Positions 3,849 to 63,175 of a stretch of 64,000 nt of DNA are shown here, one piece after another. Source of the DNA: Escherichia phage a20; the sequence record OQ067374.1; one strand, 5' to 3'. Within the stretch, counting starts at the first letter, position 1; each line of letters begins with the position of its first letter. The position numbers were made by a program, and so were the translations under genes. The notes below the pieces were generated by a model. That model was not told the DNA's origin and made no database searches. It worked only from the letters and a program-made list of their open reading frames with translations.

Positions 3849-5174
3849 TCAAAGTGCCTCCAAGTCTTTAGTGTACTCTGTCACAACATCAGTAGACTTC
3901 CAATACTCATTTTCTTCTTTCTTAGCTTTAGCTTCTTCTGCTAGTTTACGTGCTTCGTCGGAAGTGATATGGAAGATGTTAAGACCTACCAGTTTATCGA
4001 CATGTTCTTTATACATTTCGATTTGTGCTAGCTCTTCAGTCAAAGCTTTACGAGTCTTGTCCTGAATCACAATTTCACCACTGATAACTTTTTTGATGAA
4101 GTGTGCCTTAGCAAAAGCAAGTTTAAATGCTTTTTCAGATTCAAGGATTTTGTTGTCAATACGTTTCTGAACGTAAGTCTTACGGACTTCAACAAAATCT
4201 TTGATTAAGTCCACTACGTTATCGTAGACAGCTAATTTACCCTTTTCATTAATCACTGTGATGTTTTGTGAACGACGTTCGATGAGACTAAAATCTTTCA
4301 TGATTTTTTCATGACGTAGCTCTTCATCATCAGGAAGCGAGTACTCTTTACGGAACTTCACCTTAAACCCAAAGCCGTGTTCACCACAATCATCTTCCCA
4401 AGAGATTAGACCTTTGTCTTCCAACGGGTCAAGAACCTTACTCACATACGTTTCACGGTCGAATTTATATGGGATTTCAGTTATCTGCATTTGAGTGCGA
4501 GATGTGAACTTATATGTTCCGTGAATCTCATAACGCCCATCAACTTCATGTACTTCGCCACGGAATTCCGGGAATTCAACTTTTGGCTTAGTGACATTTT
4601 TACCTTGAAGAGCTTGTAATACAGCCTTTTTTACCGATTTAAAACTATGAGGCAGAATATTTGTTGCGTAACCGGTTGCAATACCAGAAACACCATTCAA
4701 AAGAACTGTCGGAATAATAGGAAGATAGAATTTTGGTGGAATGTGTTCTTTATCTTCATGAGCTGGAGCATATTCAGTATCTTTATATACGTTATAGAAA
4801 TTTTTACTTACACGAGCAAAAATATAACGAGATGCTGCAGCTTTTTGGACTGTTCTAGAACCAAAGTTGCCCTGGCCATCTAACAGTGGATAGTTGTTGT
4901 TCCATGTGTTAGCCATTAATGCACCTGCATCTTGTGCAGAAGATTCACCGTGGTGATAACCTAAATCTGCAACACCGCCTGCAATTGACGCAAGTTTATG
5001 AAATTTTTCTTTATTACCACGAGCCAAATCTAATGCACGATGAACCACAAAACGTTGAACCGGTTTAAATCCATCAATCATGTTTGGGATTGCACGGTTT
5101 TCAACGGTGTACATCGCATATGCTAAGGCTTCGTTATCAATAATACTTTTTAGATTACGAGAATTCAATTGCAT
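3849..5174 (-). CDS. 52: DNA topoisomerase II medium subunit (GyrA-like, gp52)
   Basis: 441 aa; ...AYAMYTVENRAIPNMIDGFKPVQRFVVHRAL...; catalytic-Tyr region typical of type IIA topoisomerase A subunit; T4 gp52 is 442 aa. Confidence 0.93.
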   Translation of the reverse strand: MQLNSRNLKSIIDNEALAYAMYTVENRAIPNMIDGFKPVQRFVVHRALDLARGNKEKFHKLASIAGGVADLGYHHGESSAQDAGALMANTWNNNYPLLDGQGNFGSRTVQKAAASRYIFARVSKNFYNVYKDTEYAPAHEDKEHIPPKFYLPIIPTVLLNGVSGIATGYATNILPHSFKSVKKAVLQALQGKNVTKPKVEFPEFRGEVHEVDGRYEIHGTYKFTSRTQMQITEIPYKFDRETYVSKVLDPLEDKGLISWEDDCGEHGFGFKVKFRKEYSLPDDEELRHEKIMKDFSLIERRSQNITVINEKGKLAVYDNVVDLIKDFVEVRKTYVQKRIDNKILESEKAFKLAFAKAHFIKKVISGEIVIQDKTRKALTEELAQIEMYKEHVDKLVGLNIFHITSDEARKLAEEAKAKKEENEYWKSTDVVTEYTKDLEAL

Positions 5175-6006: not shown

Positions 6007-6040
6007 GCATTATACTCTGCTCTCAAGAGTTTGTACAATT
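6007..6040 (-). promoter_or_regulatory. early promoter for ndd (-35 TGTACA, 17 nt, -10 TATAAT) with -10 inside a short inverted repeat gagagc...gctctc
   Basis: Plus text gagagcATTATActctgctctcaagagtttGTACAatt. Confidence 0.6.
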
Positions 6041-12235: not shown

Positions 12236-12266
12236 TAAAATTAAAATGAAGCTCCCGAAGGAGCTT
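12236..12266 (-). terminator. terminator-like hairpin overlapping the stop of the HNH gene
   Basis: aagctcc-cgaa-ggagctt with downstream U-rich tract on minus-strand RNA. Confidence 0.55.
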
Positions 12267-13062
12267 AGGACATCCAACACATTTTATAACCTTTGCAGGT
12301 TCTGTTAGGATTATTTAATGCTTTCAATATATTAGAAGACCCTATATCTAAATACTCTCTTAATTCATAAAGATAGTTAAAATCAATAGTTTCACCTGTT
12401 TTTACACTTGTGATTCTTATAGGCCTTCTTTCATATTTAGATTTATACAACTCTCTAGTCTTAGCTTTAGTTTCTTCCGACCTAGGAGTGTATGGTTTAA
12501 ATCCTTTTGTTTTAAATGTTTCCATTCTTGATTTAGTTATTTTATCCTGGTGTTCTTTTGTTTTTACAGGTGCTTTTCGCCCATTCTCCCAAGATAACTT
12601 GTTGGCCTGTATTATTTTATCTATTGCTTCTTGCGTATGAGTTTTACCATAAAATGGATTTAATTCGCCTATACGTTGTGAAGCAATATGTGACATTAAT
12701 TCTCTTGTTGCTTTAGTATGTTTTTTACCTTTAAATGGGTTGCCGTTTTTAGCAATCCATTCTTTCATAAATCTAGAGTGCTCTTTAGAGAATTCTTGTT
12801 TAAGCCAATCATAATCTCTAGAATTTCTAGCTCCCATGTAAAAAGCTCTAATAGCCATAAGCATAGAACGGTTCTTATGAATTTTATAAAGCAATAAATG
12901 GGCGATAAAATGCTCTCTAGGGGTCATTTTAACTAGATTTGATTTATCATTACTCCCACCCATAGATTTTGGCAATATATGATGTGTCTCAGTATAATTA
13001 GGAATAATGCTGCGGTTTTTAGCCGCAGCGATAAGTTTATCATAAATTTTACGATAATTCAT
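12265..13062 (-). CDS. HNH-family homing endonuclease (Mob-like) with NUMOD3-type repeats
   Basis: ...ETHHILPKSMGGSNDKSNLVKMTPREHFIAHLLLYKIH... plus repeated NPF(Y/K)GK(T/K)HT; start taken at MNYRKIY giving TAATG overlap with gene 39 stop. Confidence 0.8.
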   Translation of the reverse strand: MNYRKIYDKLIAAAKNRSIIPNYTETHHILPKSMGGSNDKSNLVKMTPREHFIAHLLLYKIHKNRSMLMAIRAFYMGARNSRDYDWLKQEFSKEHSRFMKEWIAKNGNPFKGKKHTKATRELMSHIASQRIGELNPFYGKTHTQEAIDKIIQANKLSWENGRKAPVKTKEHQDKITKSRMETFKTKGFKPYTPRSEETKAKTRELYKSKYERRPIRITSVKTGETIDFNYLYELREYLDIGSSNILKALNNPNRTCKGYKMCWMS

Positions 13063-14882
13063 TATCCTAGCATCCAATCTTTACGGAGTTCAGGGTCGTT
13101 ACCCATGAGCATTTCAAATAGTTCTTTCCAATTTTCAGGAAGTTTAACTACGTCGTACACAGGGTTTTGAATCATTTCTTTATATTCATCTCGCTGAAGT
13201 GAGCCCAATCCCTTGATGTATCGAATACTATGCTTAGGCAGTGTATCTTTAGCTTCTTCATACTCAGCTACAGTATAAAACCATTTTTGAGTTTTGCCAA
13301 TTTGTGCAATAATTACAGGCGTTTTAACAAAGCGAATACGTCCTTGTTCAAACAATTCAGGCCAATTACTAAAGAAAGCAAGCAAAGCTGGATAGATACT
13401 TCCAAGACCGTCATGATCGGCATCGGTCATAATTGCAATATTACGATAGTTCGTATTCTCTGCCTTTTCACCAAGAATAAGACCTGTGATAGCACAGATA
13501 TCAAAGAGCTCTTTGTTCTTCATCATATCAGCATATGACATACCCCAGCTATTCATCACCTTACCACGTAATGGGAATCCGCCGTGTAGTTCACGGTCAC
13601 GAACATCAATGAGATAACCAATTGCCGAATCACCTTCTGTTAAAAACAATGTCGTATCTGCATCTTTACCACATTGGTTAGCTTTAATATGCTTATGAAC
13701 CTTAGCTTTAGTTGCCTTTTTAGCTGCTTTAGTTTCTGCAGCCTTTTCTGCCGCCAATTTACGAGCTAATGCTGCTTCAACAATAGGCATAATCAAGGCT
13801 TCGTTTTTAAGAAGTGCCTGAGCAATTTTCTTAGCATCTAATTGGATATGATTACGAATATCACCATACGTTGACGTTAAACGTTCTTTAGTCTGAGAAT
13901 CAAAACGCATGTTGCTCATGTCTCTAATAAACATCAACATTGTGAGACATTCTTTAACACGAGCTTTAGTGACTTCAATACCCTTATATTTCTTTTTAAT
14001 ACCCGGCAAAAGATGTTCACAGATATCATCCATTACACATTCAACATGATGACCACCGTTTTTAGTATGGATGTTATTCACATAAGTTAAATGACGGAAG
14101 CCATCTGGTGATGTTGTGAATGCTATAGAGACTTTATCATTTTCTTGAATGATGTTATCTTCACCAAATTGTTTAGCAAATCGTTTAAAATTACCATCAA
14201 CCTTTTTACCATTAAATGTGAACTTGATATCAGGATAAACGACTGCCAATGTTTGAAGTCGGTCTAAAGTAATATCTAAATAAATTTGAGATAAATTATG
14301 CTCTTCAAATGAAGAGAAATCAGGAGTGAAGATTACTTTAGTGCCTTTACCTTTAGATTTCTTAGAAGACCATGATTTGTTTTCCATTCCGTTTGAACAG
14401 TTAACAGTGATTTCATTTTCGCCATCTGACGTGATGCCTGTAAACAACGTAGAGAAGATATTAGTTAAACTACTCCCGACGCCGTTCATACCACCAGTCT
14501 TGCGTTCAGAGTCATCACCAAAGTTACCACCAGCCTTTGGAATAGTCCAGGCTGCTACAGGCCCAGGAATTTGTTCACCTGTTTGGTCGGTAACTAAACC
14601 TTGAGGAATACCACGTCCGTTATCTTCCACCGAAACTTGATTATTTTTAATTTGCACATCAATTTTATTTGCAAACTTAAATGATGTACGAATAGCTTCA
14701 TCAACCGAGTTGTCAATAATCTCATCGATTAATTTAACCAGACCAGGAACATATTCAACTTGTTGATATTTACCAAACAAAAAACGCTCGTGTGCTTCTT
14801 TAGCCGAAGAACCAATATACATACCACTACGTTTCTTAATATGTTCTACATCTGACAATACCTTAATTTCATTTTTAATCAT
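13062..14882 (-). CDS. 39: DNA topoisomerase II large subunit, unsplit (gp39 fused with gp60-equivalent C-terminus)
   Basis: 606 aa; GyrB-like ATPase motifs (EIIDNSVDEA, VEDNGRGIP, GGxxGxG region) then TOPRIM region LFLTEGDSA...MTDADHDGLGS; one continuous ORF, no gene 60 split. Confidence 0.92.
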   Translation of the reverse strand: MIKNEIKVLSDVEHIKKRSGMYIGSSAKEAHERFLFGKYQQVEYVPGLVKLIDEIIDNSVDEAIRTSFKFANKIDVQIKNNQVSVEDNGRGIPQGLVTDQTGEQIPGPVAAWTIPKAGGNFGDDSERKTGGMNGVGSSLTNIFSTLFTGITSDGENEITVNCSNGMENKSWSSKKSKGKGTKVIFTPDFSSFEEHNLSQIYLDITLDRLQTLAVVYPDIKFTFNGKKVDGNFKRFAKQFGEDNIIQENDKVSIAFTTSPDGFRHLTYVNNIHTKNGGHHVECVMDDICEHLLPGIKKKYKGIEVTKARVKECLTMLMFIRDMSNMRFDSQTKERLTSTYGDIRNHIQLDAKKIAQALLKNEALIMPIVEAALARKLAAEKAAETKAAKKATKAKVHKHIKANQCGKDADTTLFLTEGDSAIGYLIDVRDRELHGGFPLRGKVMNSWGMSYADMMKNKELFDICAITGLILGEKAENTNYRNIAIMTDADHDGLGSIYPALLAFFSNWPELFEQGRIRFVKTPVIIAQIGKTQKWFYTVAEYEEAKDTLPKHSIRYIKGLGSLQRDEYKEMIQNPVYDVVKLPENWKELFEMLMGNDPELRKDWMLG

Positions 14883-14914: not shown

Positions 14915-14947
14915 CCGAAATCTAAAGCAAAAAGGGCCGAAGCCCTT
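14915..14947 (-). terminator. UUCG-loop hairpin terminator upstream of gene 39 (overlaps stop of preceding gene)
   Basis: aagggc-cgaa-gccctt with A-run on plus strand. Confidence 0.6.
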
Positions 14948-16772: not shown

Positions 16773-16796
16773 ATTATTCTCCTCTGGTTGATATGG

Positions 16797-16829
16797 TTAT
16801 AATACCAAAACCAGAGGAGAAGTAAACAA
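16797..16829 (-). promoter_or_regulatory. early promoter (-35 GTTTAC, 17 nt, -10 TATTAT) lying in the loop of an 11-bp perfect inverted repeat that includes the SD of the downstream gene
   Basis: ctcctctggtt gatatggttATAATAcca aaccagaggag aaGTAAAC. Confidence 0.55.
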
Positions 16830-16831
16830 CT

Positions 16832-17734: not shown

Positions 17735-17761
17735 AATTTCTCTCTTTGTTTAAATTGAATT

Positions 17762-17792
17762 CACTATACTCCATCCATCCTTGGATGTACAA
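17762..17792 (-). promoter_or_regulatory. early promoter (-35 TGTACA, 17 nt, -10 TATAGT)
   Basis: Plus text tcACTATActccatccatccttggaTGTACAac. Confidence 0.6.
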
Positions 17793-17794
17793 CA

Positions 17795-18289
17795 TTAATT
17801 AAGGATATTAACCACAGCACTACGTGGAACTACACTAAAATCACCTGCATGAACAACGTTCAGAAGTTCAACACCATTTTCAATCCATTGGTCAGTTACC
17901 CATCCATTTACTGGACCGGCGAACGGTCGACGAATTGAAACATATTTACACAACAAATCAGTAGGCTCAATAGGCTTAATCAGAGTACCGTACATACAAG
18001 CGATATCCATATCAATACAGATGTCTTTAACGGGTTCTACTTCTTCAATCAACAGTTCAAAGTCGGTGCTTGGAAGGGCGGTAGTAGAAATTGTACCGTA
18101 TGAATTTTTAATTTCTAAGAATAACCAAGGGCCTTCAGCTTGTTTGATAAAGTTAACAATAGTGAAACTATTACCTTGAGTGGCACCTAAAATTTCACAA
18201 AACTTTTCATAAGCTCGCACTGAAGCACCGTACCAGTTGATTTGTTTTTCGTCTTTCAGGATGTAAGTAGCCGTAGTATTGATATTCAT
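17795..18289 (-). CDS. paralog C of tandem family (shares C-terminal module only)
   Basis: 164 aa; ...GWVTDQWIENGVELLNVVHAGDFSVVPRS. Confidence 0.55.
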   Translation of the reverse strand: MNINTTATYILKDEKQINWYGASVRAYEKFCEILGATQGNSFTIVNFIKQAEGPWLFLEIKNSYGTISTTALPSTDFELLIEEVEPVKDICIDMDIACMYGTLIKPIEPTDLLCKYVSIRRPFAGPVNGWVTDQWIENGVELLNVVHAGDFSVVPRSAVVNILN

Positions 18290-18318
18290 AATGTTTTTCC
18301 TGTTTGGTTAAGATAGAA

Positions 18319-18351
18319 AGATTATACTCCAACCATCCTTGGTTGTAAACT
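18319..18351 (-). promoter_or_regulatory. early promoter; 30-mer attatactccaaccatccttggttgtaaac repeated near-identically at ~60483 and ~61503
   Basis: Plus text gATTATActccaaccatccttggttGTAAAC. Confidence 0.6.
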
Positions 18352-18355
18352 GGTT

Positions 18356-29156: not shown

Positions 29157-29470
29157 ATTTCCTCGCAAAATGCCCATTCAGCGTGATAAACTGTAGCGCC
29201 TTTAGTATCATTCATTTGAACTACATCTACCGGAGAAATTACTCGGTAGAGACGTGGTTCACCTCCATAAGAGCGTGCTGCTCGTCCTGCATAAATCTTT
29301 GCTAAACCGATATCTTCAGTAAAGAATACACGATCCAAGTTTTTCTTACGTCCAGTTTCAGACAGAACTCCTGTTTCTTCAGGAGGACAAAGCATGTTTT
29401 CGATGTTAGCTGAACTACTTGAACCGTGATAAAAAATCTTAAATTCTGCTTTACAATCGATGGTTTTCAT
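29153..29470 (-). CDS. hypothetical protein
   Basis: ORF track, 105 aa. Confidence 0.5.
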   Translation of the reverse strand: MKTIDCKAEFKIFYHGSSSSANIENMLCPPEETGVLSETGRKKNLDRVFFTEDIGLAKIYAGRAARSYGGEPRLYRVISPVDVVQMNDTKGATVYHAEWAFCEEI

Positions 29471-29494
29471 TTTGTTCTCCAGTAGTTGATAGGT

Positions 29495-29526
29495 CTATAA
29501 TAACACAACTACTGGAGAAGTAAACT
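29495..29526 (-). promoter_or_regulatory. early promoter (-35 GTTTAC, 17 nt, -10 TATTAT) within the loop of a 12-bp perfect inverted repeat that contains the downstream SD
   Basis: ctccagtagttg ataggtctATAATAaca caactactggag aaGTAAAC. Confidence 0.6.
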
Positions 29527-36707: not shown

Positions 36708-37097
36708 TTATAGATTCGGTTTATATGATTTAAATGTTTCGAATTCGCCTTTATTCATAAGAGCTTTGAATTCGTCAGGACGCATAGCTTTGTCGTCGAT
36801 AATCCAATCATATACTGGTTTATGTGTTAGCAAATTATGGTACTTCAAACCAATGTTTTCCAAGTTCTGAATCAGACTTGGGAGAATGTCAATTGCTATA
36901 CGTCCAGGACCTACTGACTTCATACCGCGAGCAGTGTAAAGCGTTATGGTATGCCCTGCATCATACAGAGCATTAATAGCAGTCACCATTTCGACGTCTG
37001 GTTTGAAGTTCACGTAATCACGATTGTTATTCCACTCTGTTATACAATCATCGACGTCCACGCAAAGATGTAATGGTTTCATAGCAATATCCTTCAA
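36708..37097 (-). CDS. small HAD-superfamily phosphatase
   Basis: 129 aa; motif I LCVDVDDCIT (DxDx[T/V]), ITLYTAR, and K...IIDD; start may be the ATG 15 nt downstream. Confidence 0.6.
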   Translation of the reverse strand: MKDIAMKPLHLCVDVDDCITEWNNNRDYVNFKPDVEMVTAINALYDAGHTITLYTARGMKSVGPGRIAIDILPSLIQNLENIGLKYHNLLTHKPVYDWIIDDKAMRPDEFKALMNKGEFETFKSYKPNL

Positions 37098-37809
37098 TAG
37101 AATTTTTAATATTATCAGCTATACGCTTTCTAGGAATACCCGTTTTCTTTTCAGCTATCCTAAGAGATTCATAGTAATTTTCGTTTATTTTAACAAATTT
37201 TTGAGACTTGTGAGCATTTTTGCTTTCGTCCTGATATCGATAATTAAGATATTTAGGCGATTTTACTCTCTTTTGAATCGTGGCAGAAGATATACCCAAA
37301 TCTTTAGCCGCTTCCCGACAGGATTCATAATATTTGCCATCTACATTAATCTTTAGACCATGTAATGCAGGTTTACCATACCTCCTGTGCTTTTCTTTAC
37401 CCCTAGCTATAGATTCAGCTGACAAAGTTTTACCCCATCTTGGGTTTTTATCACCAACTAAACGTCCTTTATTTGCCTTAGAAATTTTATCCTTGGACCT
37501 TTGGGATAACCCGTCAGAACCGCCTTCGCCACCAGTTTTAAGATTGTAATAATTTGGGTCTTTAACTATGTCTAATGTTATTAGAGCCTTTTCAGCTATT
37601 TTTAATTCTTCTCTCGAGCTATGGTAGGAAATGATTTCTTTAAGAAAATTTTCCTTCCCGTATTTCCTTTCAGCCTTTTTATATAATTTACCAGAACCTT
37701 TATATAAATCTAAAGGCTCGGCTTCTTCAGCCGAGTGCATTCCTAAATAAACTTTACCGTTTATAAGATTAGTAGTTTTGTAGAGATAATGTATCAAATT
37801 CGTTCCCAT
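37048..37809 (-). CDS. GIY-YIG homing endonuclease (Seg-like)
   Basis: 253 aa; N-terminal HYLYKTTNLINGKVYLGMHS...YKGSG (GIY-YIG module), basic DNA-binding C-terminal region; overlaps both neighbours. Confidence 0.8.
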   Translation of the reverse strand: MGTNLIHYLYKTTNLINGKVYLGMHSAEEAEPLDLYKGSGKLYKKAERKYGKENFLKEIISYHSSREELKIAEKALITLDIVKDPNYYNLKTGGEGGSDGLSQRSKDKISKANKGRLVGDKNPRWGKTLSAESIARGKEKHRRYGKPALHGLKINVDGKYYESCREAAKDLGISSATIQKRVKSPKYLNYRYQDESKNAHKSQKFVKINENYYESLRIAEKKTGIPRKRIADNIKNSIEGYCYETITSLRGRR

Positions 37810-46530: not shown

Positions 46531-47247
46531 ATGAATTATAACTCAATATACGAAAAGCTTATCACCAATGCTAAATCAAGAAGTTTAGATGGTTATACAG
46601 AACGTCATCACATTATACCACAATGTTTAGGTGGAAGTGATGATGCTTTAAACTTAGTAGACTTAACACCGGAAGAACATTATTTGGCACATCAACTGTT
46701 GGTAAAAATCCATCCAGATAATGCCTCTTTAATATATGCCGCTCGTATGATGACCATATCATCTCCTAAAGCAGATAGAAGCAAAAACAAATTATTTGGA
46801 TGGCTTCGACGTAAGAATCAAGAAGTTCAAAAGAATAAAGAATTCACTGCTGAAACCCGTAAGAAAATGTCCGAGTCTGCAAAAAATAAACCAAAGATTA
46901 CCTGTCCACATTGTGGTTTAACTGGAACTGAAGGAAACATGCGACGTTGGCATTTTGATAATTGTAAACAAGGTCCAACGCCTAAAATAGTAAAACTTGA
47001 TCAAGAAACAAAAGATAAAATAATTAAAACCATGGCCACGAAAATTTGGAAAGAAGATTCTTGCCCGTTTTGTGGCTTAACTACTAAGTTATCGGCGTTA
47101 AAGCCACATATAAAATTCTGTAAATCAAATCCTAACAGAAAGAAAAAAGAGGACAAGAAAATTAAATGTCCTCATTGCGATAAAATAGGGATCCCTGCTA
47201 ATATGCATCGTTGGCATTTCGATAATTGTAAATATAAGCCTCATTAA
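46531..47247 (+). CDS. HNH-family homing endonuclease with three C-terminal CxxC...C zinc-finger repeats, plus strand
   Basis: 238 aa; ...YTERHHIIPQCLGGSDDALNLVDLTPEEHYLAHQLLVKIH...; repeats CPHCGLTGTEGNMRRWHFDNCK / CPFCGLTTK / CPHCDKIGIPANMHRWHFDNCK; SD AAGGA; convergent with gene 46. Confidence 0.8.
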   Translation: MNYNSIYEKLITNAKSRSLDGYTERHHIIPQCLGGSDDALNLVDLTPEEHYLAHQLLVKIHPDNASLIYAARMMTISSPKADRSKNKLFGWLRRKNQEVQKNKEFTAETRKKMSESAKNKPKITCPHCGLTGTEGNMRRWHFDNCKQGPTPKIVKLDQETKDKIIKTMATKIWKEDSCPFCGLTTKLSALKPHIKFCKSNPNRKKKEDKKIKCPHCDKIGIPANMHRWHFDNCKYKPH

Positions 47248-51973: not shown

Positions 51974-52045
51974 AAGTACCTCTTAGCTCAATTCATAGGT
52001 CTATTATATCATAATATTTAGAGACCTATCTTAAAGCACGAGATA

Positions 52046-52903: not shown

Positions 52904-52936
52904 GAATTATACTCATCTCTCAAGAGTTTGTATACT
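52904..52936 (-). promoter_or_regulatory. early promoter (-35 TATACA/TGTATA, 17 nt, -10 TATAAT) with -10 inside inverted repeat gagag...ctctc
   Basis: Plus text gagagaATTATActcatctctcaagagttTGTATAc. Confidence 0.5.
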
Positions 52937-53203: not shown

Positions 53204-53236
53204 AGATAATAACATGACTTCCTATCGTTGTACATT
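53204..53236 (-). promoter_or_regulatory. early promoter (-35 TGTACA, 17 nt, -10 TATTAT) inside inverted repeat gataggaag...cttcctatc
   Basis: Plus text gataggaagATAATAacatgacttcctatcgtTGTACA. Confidence 0.55.
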
Positions 53237-58069: not shown

Positions 58070-58197
58070 AATAATCTCTTCCCATTTCCATATTAATTAA
58101 TTCATTTATTGAAGGTTCATCATAACACGTTTCTTCGTCGTTGTAAACTGTTTCGACGTCTGGCTCGACTGTCTCCCATCGAGCCGAATACCACGGT

Positions 58198-58533: not shown

Positions 58534-58793
58534 TTAAAATATTCTCGCAGTTGGTCAAATCCACCAATGTGACTTCCGTCAGGAGCAAACACTTGAGGCA
58601 TAGTCAATCCGACTTGTGATTCACGACCAAGCTTAACCAGAAGCTCAGCAATTTTCTCATCATCGAACACACCTTTTTCTGGCATAACATTAATGAATTC
58701 GAATGGCTGTTTCTTAACAGTCAGCAATCTTTTCGCATTATCACAGAAAACACAACGGTGAATAGTAGAGTCATACCCGTACACTTTAAACAT
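58530..58793 (-). CDS. nrdC: thioredoxin/glutaredoxin NrdC
   Basis: 87 aa from MFKVYGYDSTIHRCVFCDNAKRLLTVKKQPFEFINVMPEKGVFDDEKIAELL...; CxxC active site; recognised as T4 NrdC. Confidence 0.88.
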   Translation of the reverse strand: MFKVYGYDSTIHRCVFCDNAKRLLTVKKQPFEFINVMPEKGVFDDEKIAELLVKLGRESQVGLTMPQVFAPDGSHIGGFDQLREYFK

Positions 58794-59199
58794 TATTTTT
58801 CCTTTCATCGATTAAATATGCAACACCAAATACAATACATGTAATAAAACCTGTGATACCGATAGAGAACATCAACACTGTACCAAAGAACCAAATCAGG
58901 TTATCTTTAGTAGTTTGTTTGATATCCATCTCACGAATTTCTATAGCTATCGTATCACCTTTATTCAGAAGCGTATAAAACGACGGTGATACACGCCTGT
59001 CAAAAACTCGTCCTTGCTCATCTTTATAGACGGCAATAAATTCTAATTTAGAATATTTTCCTGTAGATTGACCTGAAATTAATTCCACTACCTCCACAGG
59101 AATTACTTTAGTTTCCATGTAAGTATTCTGGCTGTTCCAAATGAATGGAATGATGGCAAAAACTAAAGCTGCAATAAAACAACGAAGGCTATATCTCAT
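58786..59199 (-). CDS. membrane protein (N-terminal and C-terminal TM segments)
   Basis: ORF track, 137 aa. Confidence 0.5.
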   Translation of the reverse strand: MRYSLRCFIAALVFAIIPFIWNSQNTYMETKVIPVEVVELISGQSTGKYSKLEFIAVYKDEQGRVFDRRVSPSFYTLLNKGDTIAIEIREMDIKQTTKDNLIWFFGTVLMFSIGITGFITCIVFGVAYLIDERKNNV

Positions 59200-59504: not shown

Positions 59505-60454
59505 TATAAAACCTCAATGGCATTTCGTAAACCATCCGCTTTCGCATTCAGAGCTTTTAACGATTTAGTTTGTTCTGCAATCTGGGCTTCGACTTCTTTC
59601 AGACGAGATTTGAGATATTCGCGTTCTTCTCTTAAGTTATCAACTTTTTCTGCTTTAGGCTCTTTAATAGGCTTAGGTTTATACGTATTAGGGTTCTTCA
59701 GTTTAATTTGAATTCGAGAACTGAATAACATTGAACCGTTATCTTCGGTTTCACTGTGTATTTCTACCACGTCCATGATTCTTAACATCATGCGAAGTTT
59801 ATAAGACAGCGAACGAACGGTTTTATTGTGCTTCTTAATTTCTTCAGCTTTCATGGTGCCGAGATTACGTGAGTAGTAATAAGGAACCTGAATATCAATT
59901 GATAATGATGCGGTACCATTACCGGTTGGTTTGAACACTGCAGTAACCCAATCTTTAGCATGAACTGTATTTGTACGATCATCGCCGCCTGTGAATAATT
60001 TACGAGAATGTTTAAAAAGCATATTCACTTGGTTATTGAATTCACAAGCAAATTTATCAGCAAATTTAGTTTCAGGAATGGTAGTTAACCAATCAGCCAA
60101 ATGAGTCTTTTTAACATCATTAACAATAGTGAATTCAACCAAATCGGTTTTAGATGTCACAGATTTAATAAAGCTCGGCTTCATAAAGTTTTTAATGTTA
60201 TCGCGAGCTACAGTAGAAGATAATAAACGAGAACGTTTGAACCATTGAAGCAACGTCCCTAACGAATGAGAATACGCATTTTGAGTATCTTTACAGATAT
60301 GATTTTCTTGGCCTATGTATGTACCAAAATCGCGAAGAATACCACTTACTACATCTCGGTGTGGAACATCAAATCCTAGTGCACCAGAAGCACGTTGGGC
60401 ATGAACGTTAGCGATAAGACCTGCAAAGTATTCAATGTAATGTGAACGTGTCAT
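59504..60454 (-). CDS. hypothetical protein with C-terminal coiled-coil (member 1 of three adjacent ~320-aa proteins)
   Basis: 316 aa; C-terminus ...EEREYLKSRLKEVEAQIAEQTKSLKALNAKADGLRNAIEVL. Confidence 0.55.
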   Translation of the reverse strand: MTRSHYIEYFAGLIANVHAQRASGALGFDVPHRDVVSGILRDFGTYIGQENHICKDTQNAYSHSLGTLLQWFKRSRLLSSTVARDNIKNFMKPSFIKSVTSKTDLVEFTIVNDVKKTHLADWLTTIPETKFADKFACEFNNQVNMLFKHSRKLFTGGDDRTNTVHAKDWVTAVFKPTGNGTASLSIDIQVPYYYSRNLGTMKAEEIKKHNKTVRSLSYKLRMMLRIMDVVEIHSETEDNGSMLFSSRIQIKLKNPNTYKPKPIKEPKAEKVDNLREEREYLKSRLKEVEAQIAEQTKSLKALNAKADGLRNAIEVL

Positions 60455-60480
60455 AATATTTTCCTCTCGTTAAGATAGAT

Positions 60481-60513
60481 TCATTATACTCCAACCATCC
60501 TTGGTTGTAAACT
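60481..60513 (-). promoter_or_regulatory. early promoter; near-identical copy of the 18319 promoter 30-mer
   Basis: Plus text tcATTATActccaaccatccttggttGTAAAC. Confidence 0.6.
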
Positions 60514-60516
60514 ATT

Positions 60517-61476
60517 TTATGATTTTAACGCATTCATTGCGTTAAAAAGTTTAGAATACTGCAACTGGAGATTCGTTACAACACTTTGAGCATCACGAAG
60601 CTTAGCTTGTGCTTTGTCAAGTTCAACAGACAGTTGGTCCATAGTGGCCTTGATTTGATTGTAACGGTAATCTTCGGCCGGAAGAAGGTCATTAGAAACA
60701 TTTAGTTTTACTGCAGACAGTTTGCACACATTTGGCAAACCTTTAAACATTGATTTACCCGAAGTAGAATAAGCACTTAGGACTTCGGCCTGTTCAATTG
60801 GGGTCCCAGTAAGCGATGCTTCAAACAATGCATTTTCCTTTTTAAGATTTTGATAATATTCGGAGTCTTTGTGCCACCATGGCGCAGGAACCTTTTTACC
60901 AATAGATACACGAGCCTGGATAGCGATATGGCCCTTATTCTTGATAGGGTCGATAATATTAAGCTCACGAGAATAAATTGCTTTAATCTGGTGGATATTA
61001 TCACCTAAAACTTCCAACGCTTGGTGGAATACACGAGCAACGTTATCATTCTTAGGTTTATACGTAAGAGTGAACTCGTTCTCACTGATAACCATGATTT
61101 CTAACTTATCGTAAGTATATTTCAAATGTTTCATGTTAATTGCTTGAGGACGAATACGAGAAGCAATGGCCATCAGATTGTTAAGGTTATTCCGGAACTG
61201 CTTAGCGAAATATTGTCCTTCACCACCAATACAAAAATTACGAAGTTTCTGTTTGGCTAATAAACGGCTGAACTCACCATTTTTAATGAACTCTTTAACG
61301 GGTGTGTTAGTAACGCATTCAAATTGAGTAAACTTACGAGAAGTAATCCCATAATATGAACAGATTTCCTCAATCTCTTCAGGAGTCTTTACAGGCATAC
61401 GGATAGGATTAGGTCCTGGAGTATATGCGTTCGAGGTAAATTCTTTGATAAGTTCTCTACGTGTAATAAAAGCCAT
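60517..61476 (-). CDS. hypothetical protein with C-terminal coiled-coil (member 2)
   Basis: 319 aa; C-terminus ...MDQLSVELDKAQAKLRDAQSVVTNLQLQYSKLFNAMNALKS. Confidence 0.55.
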   Translation of the reverse strand: MAFITRRELIKEFTSNAYTPGPNPIRMPVKTPEEIEEICSYYGITSRKFTQFECVTNTPVKEFIKNGEFSRLLAKQKLRNFCIGGEGQYFAKQFRNNLNNLMAIASRIRPQAINMKHLKYTYDKLEIMVISENEFTLTYKPKNDNVARVFHQALEVLGDNIHQIKAIYSRELNIIDPIKNKGHIAIQARVSIGKKVPAPWWHKDSEYYQNLKKENALFEASLTGTPIEQAEVLSAYSTSGKSMFKGLPNVCKLSAVKLNVSNDLLPAEDYRYNQIKATMDQLSVELDKAQAKLRDAQSVVTNLQLQYSKLFNAMNALKS

Positions 61477-61500
61477 TTTATATTCCTCATGTTGAAAAAT

Positions 61501-61533
61501 TTATTATACTCCAACCATCCTTGGTTGTACATC
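61501..61533 (-). promoter_or_regulatory. early promoter; third copy of the repeated promoter (one substitution in -35: TGTACA)
   Basis: Plus text ttATTATActccaaccatccttggttGTACAtc. Confidence 0.6.
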
Positions 61534-62527
61534 ATTCCTTAAGAAGTTTTACTACTTGAATAAGATTAGCTCGTTCTGTTTTATTTTTACCGTTTAAGCC
61601 TGCTAATCGTGAGATTTCATCGTCAGTCTGTTGAATAGTTACATTAAGTTCGTTAATCAAAGCTTCAAAGTATTTGATTTGCTCAGCATGTTTTGATTCA
61701 AATTTCTGAACCGGAATAACGTCTTGATTCAGTTCATCAATAAGGTCTTTAAGAGCATCTTCTTGGTTGATATCATATTCAACTTCTTTTATTTCTTCAA
61801 CGAGCTCGTCTTTATATCTAACGTCTTTTAGTCCTGGAGCTGGTCCTAAAATCTCTTCTTTAAGAGTACAAACATATCCAATACGATATCCAGTGCCGTC
61901 TCGCTTGATATCAACTTCGTCGATAAATCCACAATGTTTAAGACCAGAGCCGATTAGGTTAAAATATCCTTGACGTCGTCCTTCAAACGTTACACGAACT
62001 ACTAAGACGGTTTTGCCACTGACCTTTTGAAGCTCACATTTATAAAAGTCTGTTGAACCTGAATAACATGGATGAGTTTTAAAGTTCATCTGACGATCTA
62101 GACCCATTTGTAAGCGTGCTGATACGGCCATAAAACGTGTTTGGTTCTCGTTAAGATGAGCAACAATCCATTTCAAAGGCATTTTACACTGTTCACGACC
62201 GAACAAATCAGTACGTCCTAGATTACGCAGGATGTTGTTAGAGTTAATCATCGACAGAACGTTAAGTTTATTCAGCGCGCTGAAGATTCCATCAGCCATT
62301 GATTTTCCGTAACCTTTACACGCTTTAATAAGCGCTCGCGGCAGATTAGTATAGATTTCAGACGGCATATGAAAATCAAATTTACTAGTCAGTAATTGAT
62401 GAACTTGGATAGCAATTTGCTCATAATTAAGTGCTCTGCGATCATTATGGTCTTTAAACCACACTTTAATCTGTGAAGCACATAAACCGTTAATTTCATG
62501 TTTTACCGCATCAGATGTAATGCTCAT
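61532..62527 (-). CDS. hypothetical protein with C-terminal coiled-coil (member 3)
   Basis: 331 aa; C-terminus ...EALINELNVTIQQTDDEISRLAGLNGKNKTERANLIQVVKLLKE. Confidence 0.55.
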   Translation of the reverse strand: MSITSDAVKHEINGLCASQIKVWFKDHNDRRALNYEQIAIQVHQLLTSKFDFHMPSEIYTNLPRALIKACKGYGKSMADGIFSALNKLNVLSMINSNNILRNLGRTDLFGREQCKMPLKWIVAHLNENQTRFMAVSARLQMGLDRQMNFKTHPCYSGSTDFYKCELQKVSGKTVLVVRVTFEGRRQGYFNLIGSGLKHCGFIDEVDIKRDGTGYRIGYVCTLKEEILGPAPGLKDVRYKDELVEEIKEVEYDINQEDALKDLIDELNQDVIPVQKFESKHAEQIKYFEALINELNVTIQQTDDEISRLAGLNGKNKTERANLIQVVKLLKE

Positions 62528-62589
62528 AACTATTTCCTCAGATTGAATTGGAACTCAAAACCATTATAACCCGTCCTTGGGTAAAGCGT

Positions 62590-63117
62590 TTATGCGTGAA
62601 CCGTCTTTAAACGTTCTTCAAATTTCCGAAGAGTACTAATACGTTCTGCTTTCTGTTTTGTATAGTTTGCAATACGTTCTGAAGTGAGAGCGTATCGTTC
62701 GTTTACTGTTTCTTTCATGAAGTCAGGGATTTCACGAGAAGCTTTAATTTCATCAAACTTATCGAGTACTGCCTGGTCTTCAGCGATTAAATTTTCGTAC
62801 ATCTCGATATCTTTCTTGATAAACTCGATATCTTCCTGGGTTACTTTGGATAAACGAGACGCTTTATCCTTTTTGTACTGCTCGTTAGTTTCACGAGACC
62901 AGAATAATGTACGTTTTTTGTTAGTGTTTTTGTAGACTTCCACAATTCCAACTGAATCGATGATAGCAATCCAATTCCAGCGAGATTTGAAAATCTGACC
63001 TCCATCCACGGTAATCTCGTTACCATAAGCAACGTCATTAAAGAACTTGCTTTGTGCTTCAGATTTAAATTTACCGTCGTTATAATTTACCAGGTTGAAA
63101 ATATCTTTAGCGTTCAT
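62590..63117 (-). CDS. hypothetical protein
   Basis: ORF track, 175 aa; SD GGAGGT. Confidence 0.5.
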   Translation of the reverse strand: MNAKDIFNLVNYNDGKFKSEAQSKFFNDVAYGNEITVDGGQIFKSRWNWIAIIDSVGIVEVYKNTNKKRTLFWSRETNEQYKKDKASRLSKVTQEDIEFIKKDIEMYENLIAEDQAVLDKFDEIKASREIPDFMKETVNERYALTSERIANYTKQKAERISTLRKFEERLKTVHA

Positions 63118-63142
63118 GTTTTACCTCCAGTAGTTGATAGGT

Positions 63143-63174
63143 CTATAATAACATAACCATAGACCTTGTAAACA
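63143..63174 (-). promoter_or_regulatory. early promoter (-35 GTTTAC, 17 nt, -10 TATTAT); 5' leader shares ~27 nt with the 29495 promoter region
   Basis: Plus text ctccagtagttgataggtctATAATAacataaccatagaccttGTAAAC. Confidence 0.6.
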
Positions 63175-63175
63175 A

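Follow-up and report, generated by a model that had tools for sequence, protein, structure and literature searches.

A stretch of 64,000 nucleotides of Escherichia phage a20 (sequence record OQ067374.1; hereafter the window) contains several dispersed, near-identical sequences of about 30 nt. The question raised by the copy at 18319–18351 is what these sequences are, and what they do to the content and order of the genes around them. The window is a segment of a Mosigvirus (RB69-like) genome and is 98–99% identical to Mosigvirus genomes such as NRG-P0074 and BEU50. Its minus strand carries nearly all of the genes, so that the repeats are to be read on this strand. An earlier note on this DNA, in which both long repeats were written as plus-strand sequences and a shared downstream motif as a minus-strand sequence, had interpreted them as promoter-plus-leader cassettes that are substrates for homologous recombination.

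The 30-mer ATTATACTCCAACCATCCTTGGTTGTAAAC occurs exactly at 18321–18350 and 60483–60512, while none is expected by chance (100 shuffles). For the third copy, at 61503–61532, the earlier note had the position right but counted one substitution; there are two, both at the −35 end. A repeat search picks up a fourth relative at 17763–17792, with five mismatches that include a compensated stem change, together with many other intergenic sites that form looser families of the same shape. The second repeat of the note, placed at about 29480 and 63128, is equally real, its positions being off by one base: a 27-mer is exact at 29479–29505 and 63127–63153, again with none expected by chance, and the exact identity of this pair extends over 29 nt. 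The shared downstream motif TATAATAGACCTATCAA is also borne out, with nine matches at three or fewer mismatches, all on the minus strand, against 0.41 expected. Finally, the 10 nt core CCAAGGAYGG is found five times in the window (0.07 expected), each time on the minus strand and within a promoter spacer. Four of these occurrences (17775–17784, 18333–18342, 60495–60504 and 61515–61524) belong to the early copies and the fifth to a shortened element at 62563–62587.

On the minus strand the 30-mer reads as a G followed by TTTACA, a 17 nt spacer ACCAAGGATGGTTGGAG and TATAAT. Across the family the −35 is GTTTACA or TGTACA, the spacer is 17 nt and the −10 is TATAAT or TATAGT, with an SD and the ATG of the next gene about 25–30 nt beyond the −10, just as the promoter-plus-leader interpretation had it. 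Each copy occupies an intergenic unit of 55–66 nt that runs from the stop codon of the upstream gene to the SD and ATG, the stop codon lying in an A/T-rich stretch just 5′ of the −35 (for example TAAAACCAG-TTTACA...AGGAAAAACATT-ATG). The copies are the top σ70-type consensus matches in their own regions: those at 18349 and 60511 match 11 of 12 positions and that at 61531 matches ten.

The motB.1 cassette (minus strand, as are all those that follow; 18290–18355) stretches from the dexA stop codon to the ATG of motB.1 at 18289. It consists of a G at 18350, TTTACA at 18349–18344, the 17 nt spacer at 18343–18327 and TATAAT at 18326–18321, followed by a leader that begins with CTTTCTATCTTAACC and contains an SD-like AGGAAA. 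Its spacer region can form a small hairpin from CAACCA (18345–18340), an AGGA loop and TGGTTG (18335–18330). The motB cassette (17735–17794), between motB.1 and motB, is a variant with TGTACA at 17791–17786, TATAGT at 17768–17763 and a compensated spacer hairpin, CATCCA/AGGA/TGGATG. The nrdC.3 cassette (60455–60516) lies between nrdC.5 and nrdC.3 (ATG at 60454) and contains the 30-mer at 60483–60512 and the leader GAATCTATCTTAACGAGAGG. The nrdC.5 cassette (61477–61531), between nrdC.6 and nrdC.5 (ATG at 61476), has TGTACA as its −35 and a core at 61503–61528 that is identical from ACAACC to TATAAT. The names used here for the neighbouring genes are those of RB69; the product of nrdC.5 is a DUF7235 protein.

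As motB and motB.1 each match the Pfam family motB, this pair may be a tandem duplicate. The nrdC.3, nrdC.5 and nrdC.6 proteins are not similar to one another, and the nrdC-region copies are therefore not by-products of tandem gene duplication, which is ruled out as their origin. The 30-mer is confined to Mosigvirus, with two to four copies per genome, and Dhakavirus, with one copy upstream of nrdC.4. Between the two genera 27–28 of the 30 core positions are identical, while the downstream proteins share 23% identity and the flanking DNA is unalignable; by this sequence comparison the core is an island of conservation. Across loci its columns vary much less than the flanks, for which the variability counts are inflated by unaligned indels and are not usable as a rate.

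To place the copies among the promoters of the region, 24 early promoters were curated on the minus strand of the window. Their consensus is aaAataGTtTACA ... taTg.TAT.ATa..ccTATCaa, and the shared downstream motif therefore corresponds to the part of this local consensus around the start site. In addition to the cassettes described in this paper, members of this class are found (from the start of the −35 to the end of the −10) at 58147–58119, 54361–54334, 53234–53206, 52934–52906, 29958–29930, 28953–28925, 28213–28185, 24338–24310, 22869–22842, 22232–22204, 21491–21464, 16247–16219, 6810–6782, 6298–6270, 6037–6009, 3728–3701 and 1230–1202. No early promoters were found between about 30 and 52 kb of the window, the block of replication genes. 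The four early copies are located in the motB.x and nrdC.x clusters of variable, non-essential genes.

According to Nolan et al. (2006; PMC1524935), RB69 early promoters have a −35 GTTTAC preceded by an A-rich element, and C is favoured at −3 to −1. The cassettes likewise have GTTTAC at −36 to −31, A-rich sequence upstream, a TATAAT-like −10 and a position 5′ of an early-gene homologue. In RB69, the counterparts of the four early copies lie within promoters predicted there and are thus the same sites: Pe:8947 for motB.1, Pe:8387 for motB, Pe:51019 for nrdC.3 and Pe:52042 for nrdC.5. Spacings checked among the other curated promoters also match the RB69 early-promoter list. The promoter reading is therefore right and, as a prediction, already published. 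The text of that paper gives coordinates and a logo and does not discuss near-identical sub-families, hairpins or associated indels. Activity in vivo and the start sites of the cassettes are predictions from sequence.

The fifth element, upstream of nrdC.6, differs from the four early copies. It consists of GCTTTA at 62587–62582, a 13 nt spacing that includes CCAAGGACGG at 62580–62571, and TATAAT at 62568–62563. Measured against the MotA middle-promoter pattern, (a/t)(a/t)(a/t)TGCTTtA followed by 11–13 nt and TAnnnT, AAACGCTTTA-N13-TATAAT shows a single departure from the MotA box. It thus resembles the MotA-dependent middle promoters of T4 in its GCTTTA, 13 nt spacing and TATAAT, but has a C instead of a T before GCTT. 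The element is conserved as GCTTTA-N12-TATAAT in the T4-like phage PP01 and is also found in Dhakavirus-type sequences. It appears in neither the early nor the middle RB69 promoter list of Nolan et al. (2006). Its spacing fits a MotA-type middle promoter and not a σ70 early promoter, and its status is uncertain. We had also considered decay of an early promoter as the origin of the element around 62570, but a MotA-type site agrees better with its spacing and with the fact that PP01 and Dhakavirus-type sequences have kept it.

Our preferred explanation, which we hold with a probability of roughly 0.8, is that the repeats are compact T4-type early-promoter cassettes of the promoter-early stem-loop (PeSL) class (Arbiol et al., 2010, PMC2839356; Comeau et al., 2014, PMC4122927), and that recombination or slippage between neighbouring copies removes the gene that lies between them. 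Host-σ70 early promoters would be packed into intergenic cassettes of 55–66 nt, ordered as stop codon, A-rich stretch, −35 GTTTACA, 16–17 nt spacer, −10 TATAAT, start site, short leader, SD and ATG, with the start site presumably inside the conserved CCTATCAA. The CCAAGGAYGG sub-family, with four early copies and one shortened relative, would have a spacer core able to form a small hairpin, and its members would be alike because they descend from one another: the motB and motB.1 copies through tandem duplication and the nrdC copies through spread of the cassette itself. Neighbouring cassettes are direct repeats of about 28–31 nt, so that recombination or slippage between them would remove the gene in between; the pathway itself is an interpretation of the junctions described below.

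Deletions of this kind are observed directly. The nrdC.5 unit of 1020 bp (60483–61502), which comprises one cassette copy and nrdC.5, is present in some Mosigviruses and absent from others. It is missing from JM10, AV118, AV115 and the metagenome contig L044, each time with a junction within the cassette core. In the three isolates the sequence upstream of the 61503 copy is joined through a single core to the leader of the 60483 copy; L044 is arranged in the same way, except that it has the other leader allele. In length, the missing piece is equal to the 1020 bp by which the two copies are spaced. In the phage-collection records, at megablast sensitivity, nrdC.6 is found 153 times and nrdC.5 132 times. 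As JM10, AV118 and AV115 all come from Danish pig material and have one common junction, they may record a single event. We also considered a mosaic of three copies at the JM10 junction, in view of a 'cttt' after the −10 as in the motB.1 copy; the RB69 nrdC.3 copy itself has 'cttt' and this idea was dropped.

The second case concerns the motB.1 unit of 558 bp (17763–18320), again one cassette copy plus its gene, which is missing from the contig L036 (NFYZ01001493.1). Here the end of dexA and an 18321-type core are joined to the motB leader, and the two parents of the junction have only about 11 nt in common in a row. Both L036 and L044 are single metagenome contigs. Homologues of nrdC.5 and of motB.1 exist in outgroups, and their absences are therefore losses. 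These junctions support the view that the cassettes act as recombination substrates, as the earlier note had proposed, insofar as deletion between neighbours is concerned; exchange between distant copies, such as those at 18321 and 60483 that are 42 kb apart, was not seen.

Gene order around the cassettes also differs between genera, with Mosigvirus on one side and Tequatrovirus and Dhakavirus on the other. T4-like phages and Dhakavirus have the order dexA-[Pe]-motB.2-motB.1-motB, while the window, like Mosigvirus, has dexA-[Pe]-motB.1-[Pe]-motB-ORF010c-[Pe]-motB.2. Similarly, nrdC.7 follows an CCAAGGATGG element in PP01 and nrdC.2 in the window. The cassettes sit at module boundaries where the genera differ in gene order.

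A general link between cassettes and indels is not borne out at closer range. In a survey of 50 kb of the window against one close relative, KAW3E185, none of the nine structural differences is flanked by cassettes on both sides. Three of the nine are ORFs of homing-endonuclease type present in the window; in KAW3E185 there are two larger insertions, one with an annotated group I intron endonuclease gene; and two small-gene indels that were read through have junctions with microhomology only. The three ORFs present in the window and absent from KAW3E185 are located at 12265–13077 (minus strand), 37048–37809 (minus strand) and 46531–47247 (plus strand). In two of them there are NUMOD or I-TevI DNA-binding motifs, as is typical of homing endonucleases; the third, which matches no Pfam family above threshold, contains an internal 75 nt repeat (46894–46968 and 47158–47232) that encodes a Cys-rich motif.

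Three further observations were made in the regions compared. In AV115 (L054, 1500–1913, homologous to about 58786–59199 of the window) the nrdC.7 region is annotated as two short ORFs and not as one 137-amino-acid gene, and nrdC.7 may be disrupted in this phage. In ATK47 (NC_055708.1), in the region homologous to 61540–62520, a 'direct repeat sequence1 posible binding site of StbAB' is annotated in or next to nrdC.6. The end of the contig L012 (Ga0307490_1000243, 4871–4996) aligns in inverted orientation to 18230–18105 of the window, where there is no cassette; this is probably an assembly artefact.

PeSLs have been described for RB49/phi1, T4/PST and KVP40/nt-1 (PMC2839356, PMC4122927). Their stem-loops lie between the −35 and −10 or overlap the −10, crossovers map between the −10 and the SD, and indels are flanked by the elements (PMC2839356, PMC4122927). 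The cassettes of the window resemble them in having a stop codon in an A/T-rich stretch, a strong σ70-like early promoter, an SD and ATG at the 3′ end and, in many of them, a predicted stem-loop most often placed between the −35 and −10 or across the −10. The class is further characterized by measured promoter and terminator or attenuator activity and by the formation of mini-circles, for which Arbiol et al. (2010) used reporter assays and inverse PCR. PeSLs too are dispersed between non-essential genes, are associated with indels that have crossovers inside the element, and have been proposed as linkers for modular shuffling. At the level of sequence, we find the oriented early promoter, the flanking layout, indels with the crossover inside and the location among variable genes; the stem-loop is strong in the second repeat family and in some others, and weak in the 30-mer family. 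In contrast to the PeSLs of RB49, the stems are not of the G-tract/C-tract type and several of them pair the spacer with the SD. A literature search retrieved no paper naming PeSLs in RB69-like phages.

Many of the cassettes contain an inverted repeat with its 5′ arm in the spacer, the −10 in the loop and its 3′ arm in the leader. The second repeat is, judging from its sequence, the −10, leader and SD of two other early promoters of this kind. In the cassette of a 105-amino-acid ORF (29471–29525, upstream of the ATG at 29470), with TTTACT at 29524–29519 and TATTAT at 29502–29497, the spacer segment CTCCAGTAGTTG (29517–29506) is predicted to pair with CAACTACTGGAG (29488–29477) of the leader and SD. 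This creates a 12 bp stem (−21.1 kcal/mol, z = −4.95) with the −10 in its loop. The nrdC.8 cassette (63118–63175, upstream of the ATG at 63117) corresponds to Pe:53683 of RB69, as assigned by spacing. It has the same 29 nt of −10, leader and SD as 29477–29505 and a different spacer, and its predicted stem is formed by AGGTCTAT (63166–63159) and ATAGACCT (63146–63139; −16.7 kcal/mol, z = −2.72). In the motB.2 cassette (16773–16831) the spacer segment CTCCTCTGGTT is predicted to pair with AACCAGAGGAG, the SD (−24.0 kcal/mol, z = −5.4). Mosigvirus, Tequatrovirus and Dhakavirus all retain this hairpin although its arms differ in sequence, with z below −4.8 in each; the motB.2 stem of fPS-65 was paired by hand and includes one G–U pair.

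The two strongest hairpins, those of the promoters at 29524 and 16826, both pair the spacer with the SD and have z near −5. Together with those at 53234 (−15.3 kcal/mol) and 63172 the strong stems span z values from −2.7 to −5.4. For the set as a whole, the folding z-score is below −2 in eight of the 24 promoters compared with 8.7% of control segments (Mann–Whitney p = 0.005). The hairpin of the 30-mer family is weak, however, at −6.9 kcal/mol and z = −0.55, no better than shuffled sequence. Comparative support for it consists of one compensated change (CAACCA/TGGTTG versus CATCCA/TGGATG), one G–T variant and a recurrent T/C at the loop-closing base. Pattern scans of viral and metagenome contigs with a free stem returned only ACCA/TGGT, TCCA/TGGA, one GCCA/TGGT and the T/C variant, the remaining matches being chance hits in unrelated contexts; as the scans gave so few stem variants, covariation support for the small hairpin is thin. 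A homologous cassette in the Jiaodavirus Klebsiella phage KpnM6E1 (L053, 1505–1567) is without the anti-SD arm; its spacer hairpin, CCACA-AGGA-TGTGG, has the same AGGA loop as the 30-mer family.

These hairpins could themselves be the main point of the cassettes, a possibility to which we give less than even odds and which complements the cassette and recombination explanation without excluding it. The spacer, with the 5′ arm, is not transcribed from the cassette's own promoter, whereas the leader contains the 3′ arm, so that only RNA initiated upstream can fold. Read-through RNA would then hide the SD or attenuate transcription, while RNA from the own promoter would be open. The excess of low z values points in this direction, as do predicted SD accessibilities: in nine of 23 promoters, where about two are expected, the native upstream sequence reduces accessibility to a greater extent than 92% or more of its shuffled versions do. 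It is also consistent with the identical leaders of the 29524 and 63172 cassettes, whose different spacers are each complementary to a different part of the leader, with the preservation of the motB.2 hairpin across three genera, and with the nrdC.8 promoter of PP01, in which the spacer likewise pairs with the SD. Against it, these are thermodynamic predictions for short RNAs with an assumed start site, about half of the promoters have no notable stem, and the stem of the 30-mer family, besides being weak, lies within the spacer and does not touch the SD. Moreover, no U-run follows any of the stems inspected, which are therefore not classical terminators. UUCG-loop elements that look like true terminators are distinct from these stems and lie upstream of some promoters. 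Rfam gave no match at or above the gathering score in the whole window.

A more specific version is modelled on T4 e, soc, 49 and I-TevI (PMC3014915), in which a promoter lies within a hairpin and only upstream-initiated RNA has both arms and hides the SD. There the promoters are late (TATAAATA) and the effect was demonstrated experimentally, whereas here they are early promoters and the effect is predicted. It remains tentative, and somewhat less probable than a general role of the hairpins, that the cassettes would act as an early-gene device for start-dependent translation of this type and that the CCAAGGAYGG/GGAG core would in addition serve as a protein or RNase site. If start-dependent translation holds true, it would be an early-gene, genome-wide version of the T4 device, kept through turnover of the arms in at least three genera.

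The terminator-like elements themselves are G+C-rich stems with a CTTCGG loop followed by T-runs. They are found before early promoters at about 29988, 24382 and 3848, before MotA-box promoters at 14945 and 50497, and also at 12264, 7645 and 43129. Those directly upstream of promoters correspond to the cassette form in which the stem-loop precedes the promoter. The stems at 14945 and 50497 have TTTGCTTTA-N12-TAnnnT, which resembles a middle promoter, behind them.

That the palindromic core CA(A/T)CCA-AGGA-TGG(T/A)TG is the site of a phage or host protein is, in our opinion, improbable. The protein might be a repressor, a helper of a recombinase, or an RNase (RegB, for instance) that acts at the neighbouring GGAG on RNA spanning ...UGGUUGGAGUAUAAU..., and the result would be co-regulation of motB, motB.1, nrdC.3, nrdC.5 and nrdC.6. 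The spacer is indeed conserved far better than the flanks in two genera, an A/T change in one half-site is matched by T/A in the other in the copies of motB and of Dhakavirus, and none of the phage loci examined departs from TGGAGTATA in the four early copies. On the other hand, no known protein is a candidate, the core lies 6, 2 or 0 nt from the −10 depending on the member, and shared ancestry together with selection for promoter strength could equally keep the sequence. Nor does such a site sit well with the loop-closing base, which is T or C at all four early-copy loci. This T/C difference recurs in different genomes (homologues in L001, L007, L022 and L005) and could reflect gene conversion between copies or a mutation hotspot.

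Finally, it is very improbable that the copies converged on a strong-promoter optimum and that the missing genes are unrelated deletions or assembly errors: a strong extended consensus is common to all 24 promoters and metagenome contigs can be chimeric, but identity of the 17 nt spacer is not required by promoter function, as 20 other early promoters of the window have unrelated spacers, the shared core is exactly where the junctions lie in two contigs and in the finished genomes of three isolates, and the shared run of about 11 nt at the L036 junction is too short to make an assembler collapse the two copies.

With the PeSL-class cassettes as preferred reading, what is new and most useful here is the exact position of the deletion junctions of nrdC.5 and motB.1, together with the conserved predicted pairing of spacer and SD. 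The junctions show at the sequence level, for the RB69 group, how T-even phages lose genes by breakage and joining at short promoter cassettes, which probably also serve in the reordering of genes, and they extend the PeSL model to another genus. That many early promoters are wrapped in hairpins, some of which would pair with the SD, suggests a regulatory layer by which adjacent early genes would be kept apart. The cassettes also mark natural module boundaries, which is of use in annotating and engineering phages.

Two other sites in the window have related features. The promoters at 52906–52934 and 6009–6037 are 77% identical over 57 nt, and their stems differ by a compensated change, GAGAGC/GCTCTC versus GAGAGA/TCTCTC. 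The intergenic unit at 51974–52045 combines a MotA-box-like GTGCTTTAA with an 8 bp stem, ATAGGTCT/AGACCTAT, and with several −10-like hexamers (TATTAT, TATAAT) that overlap. Its spacing fits neither an early nor a middle promoter, and it may be a rearranged cassette.
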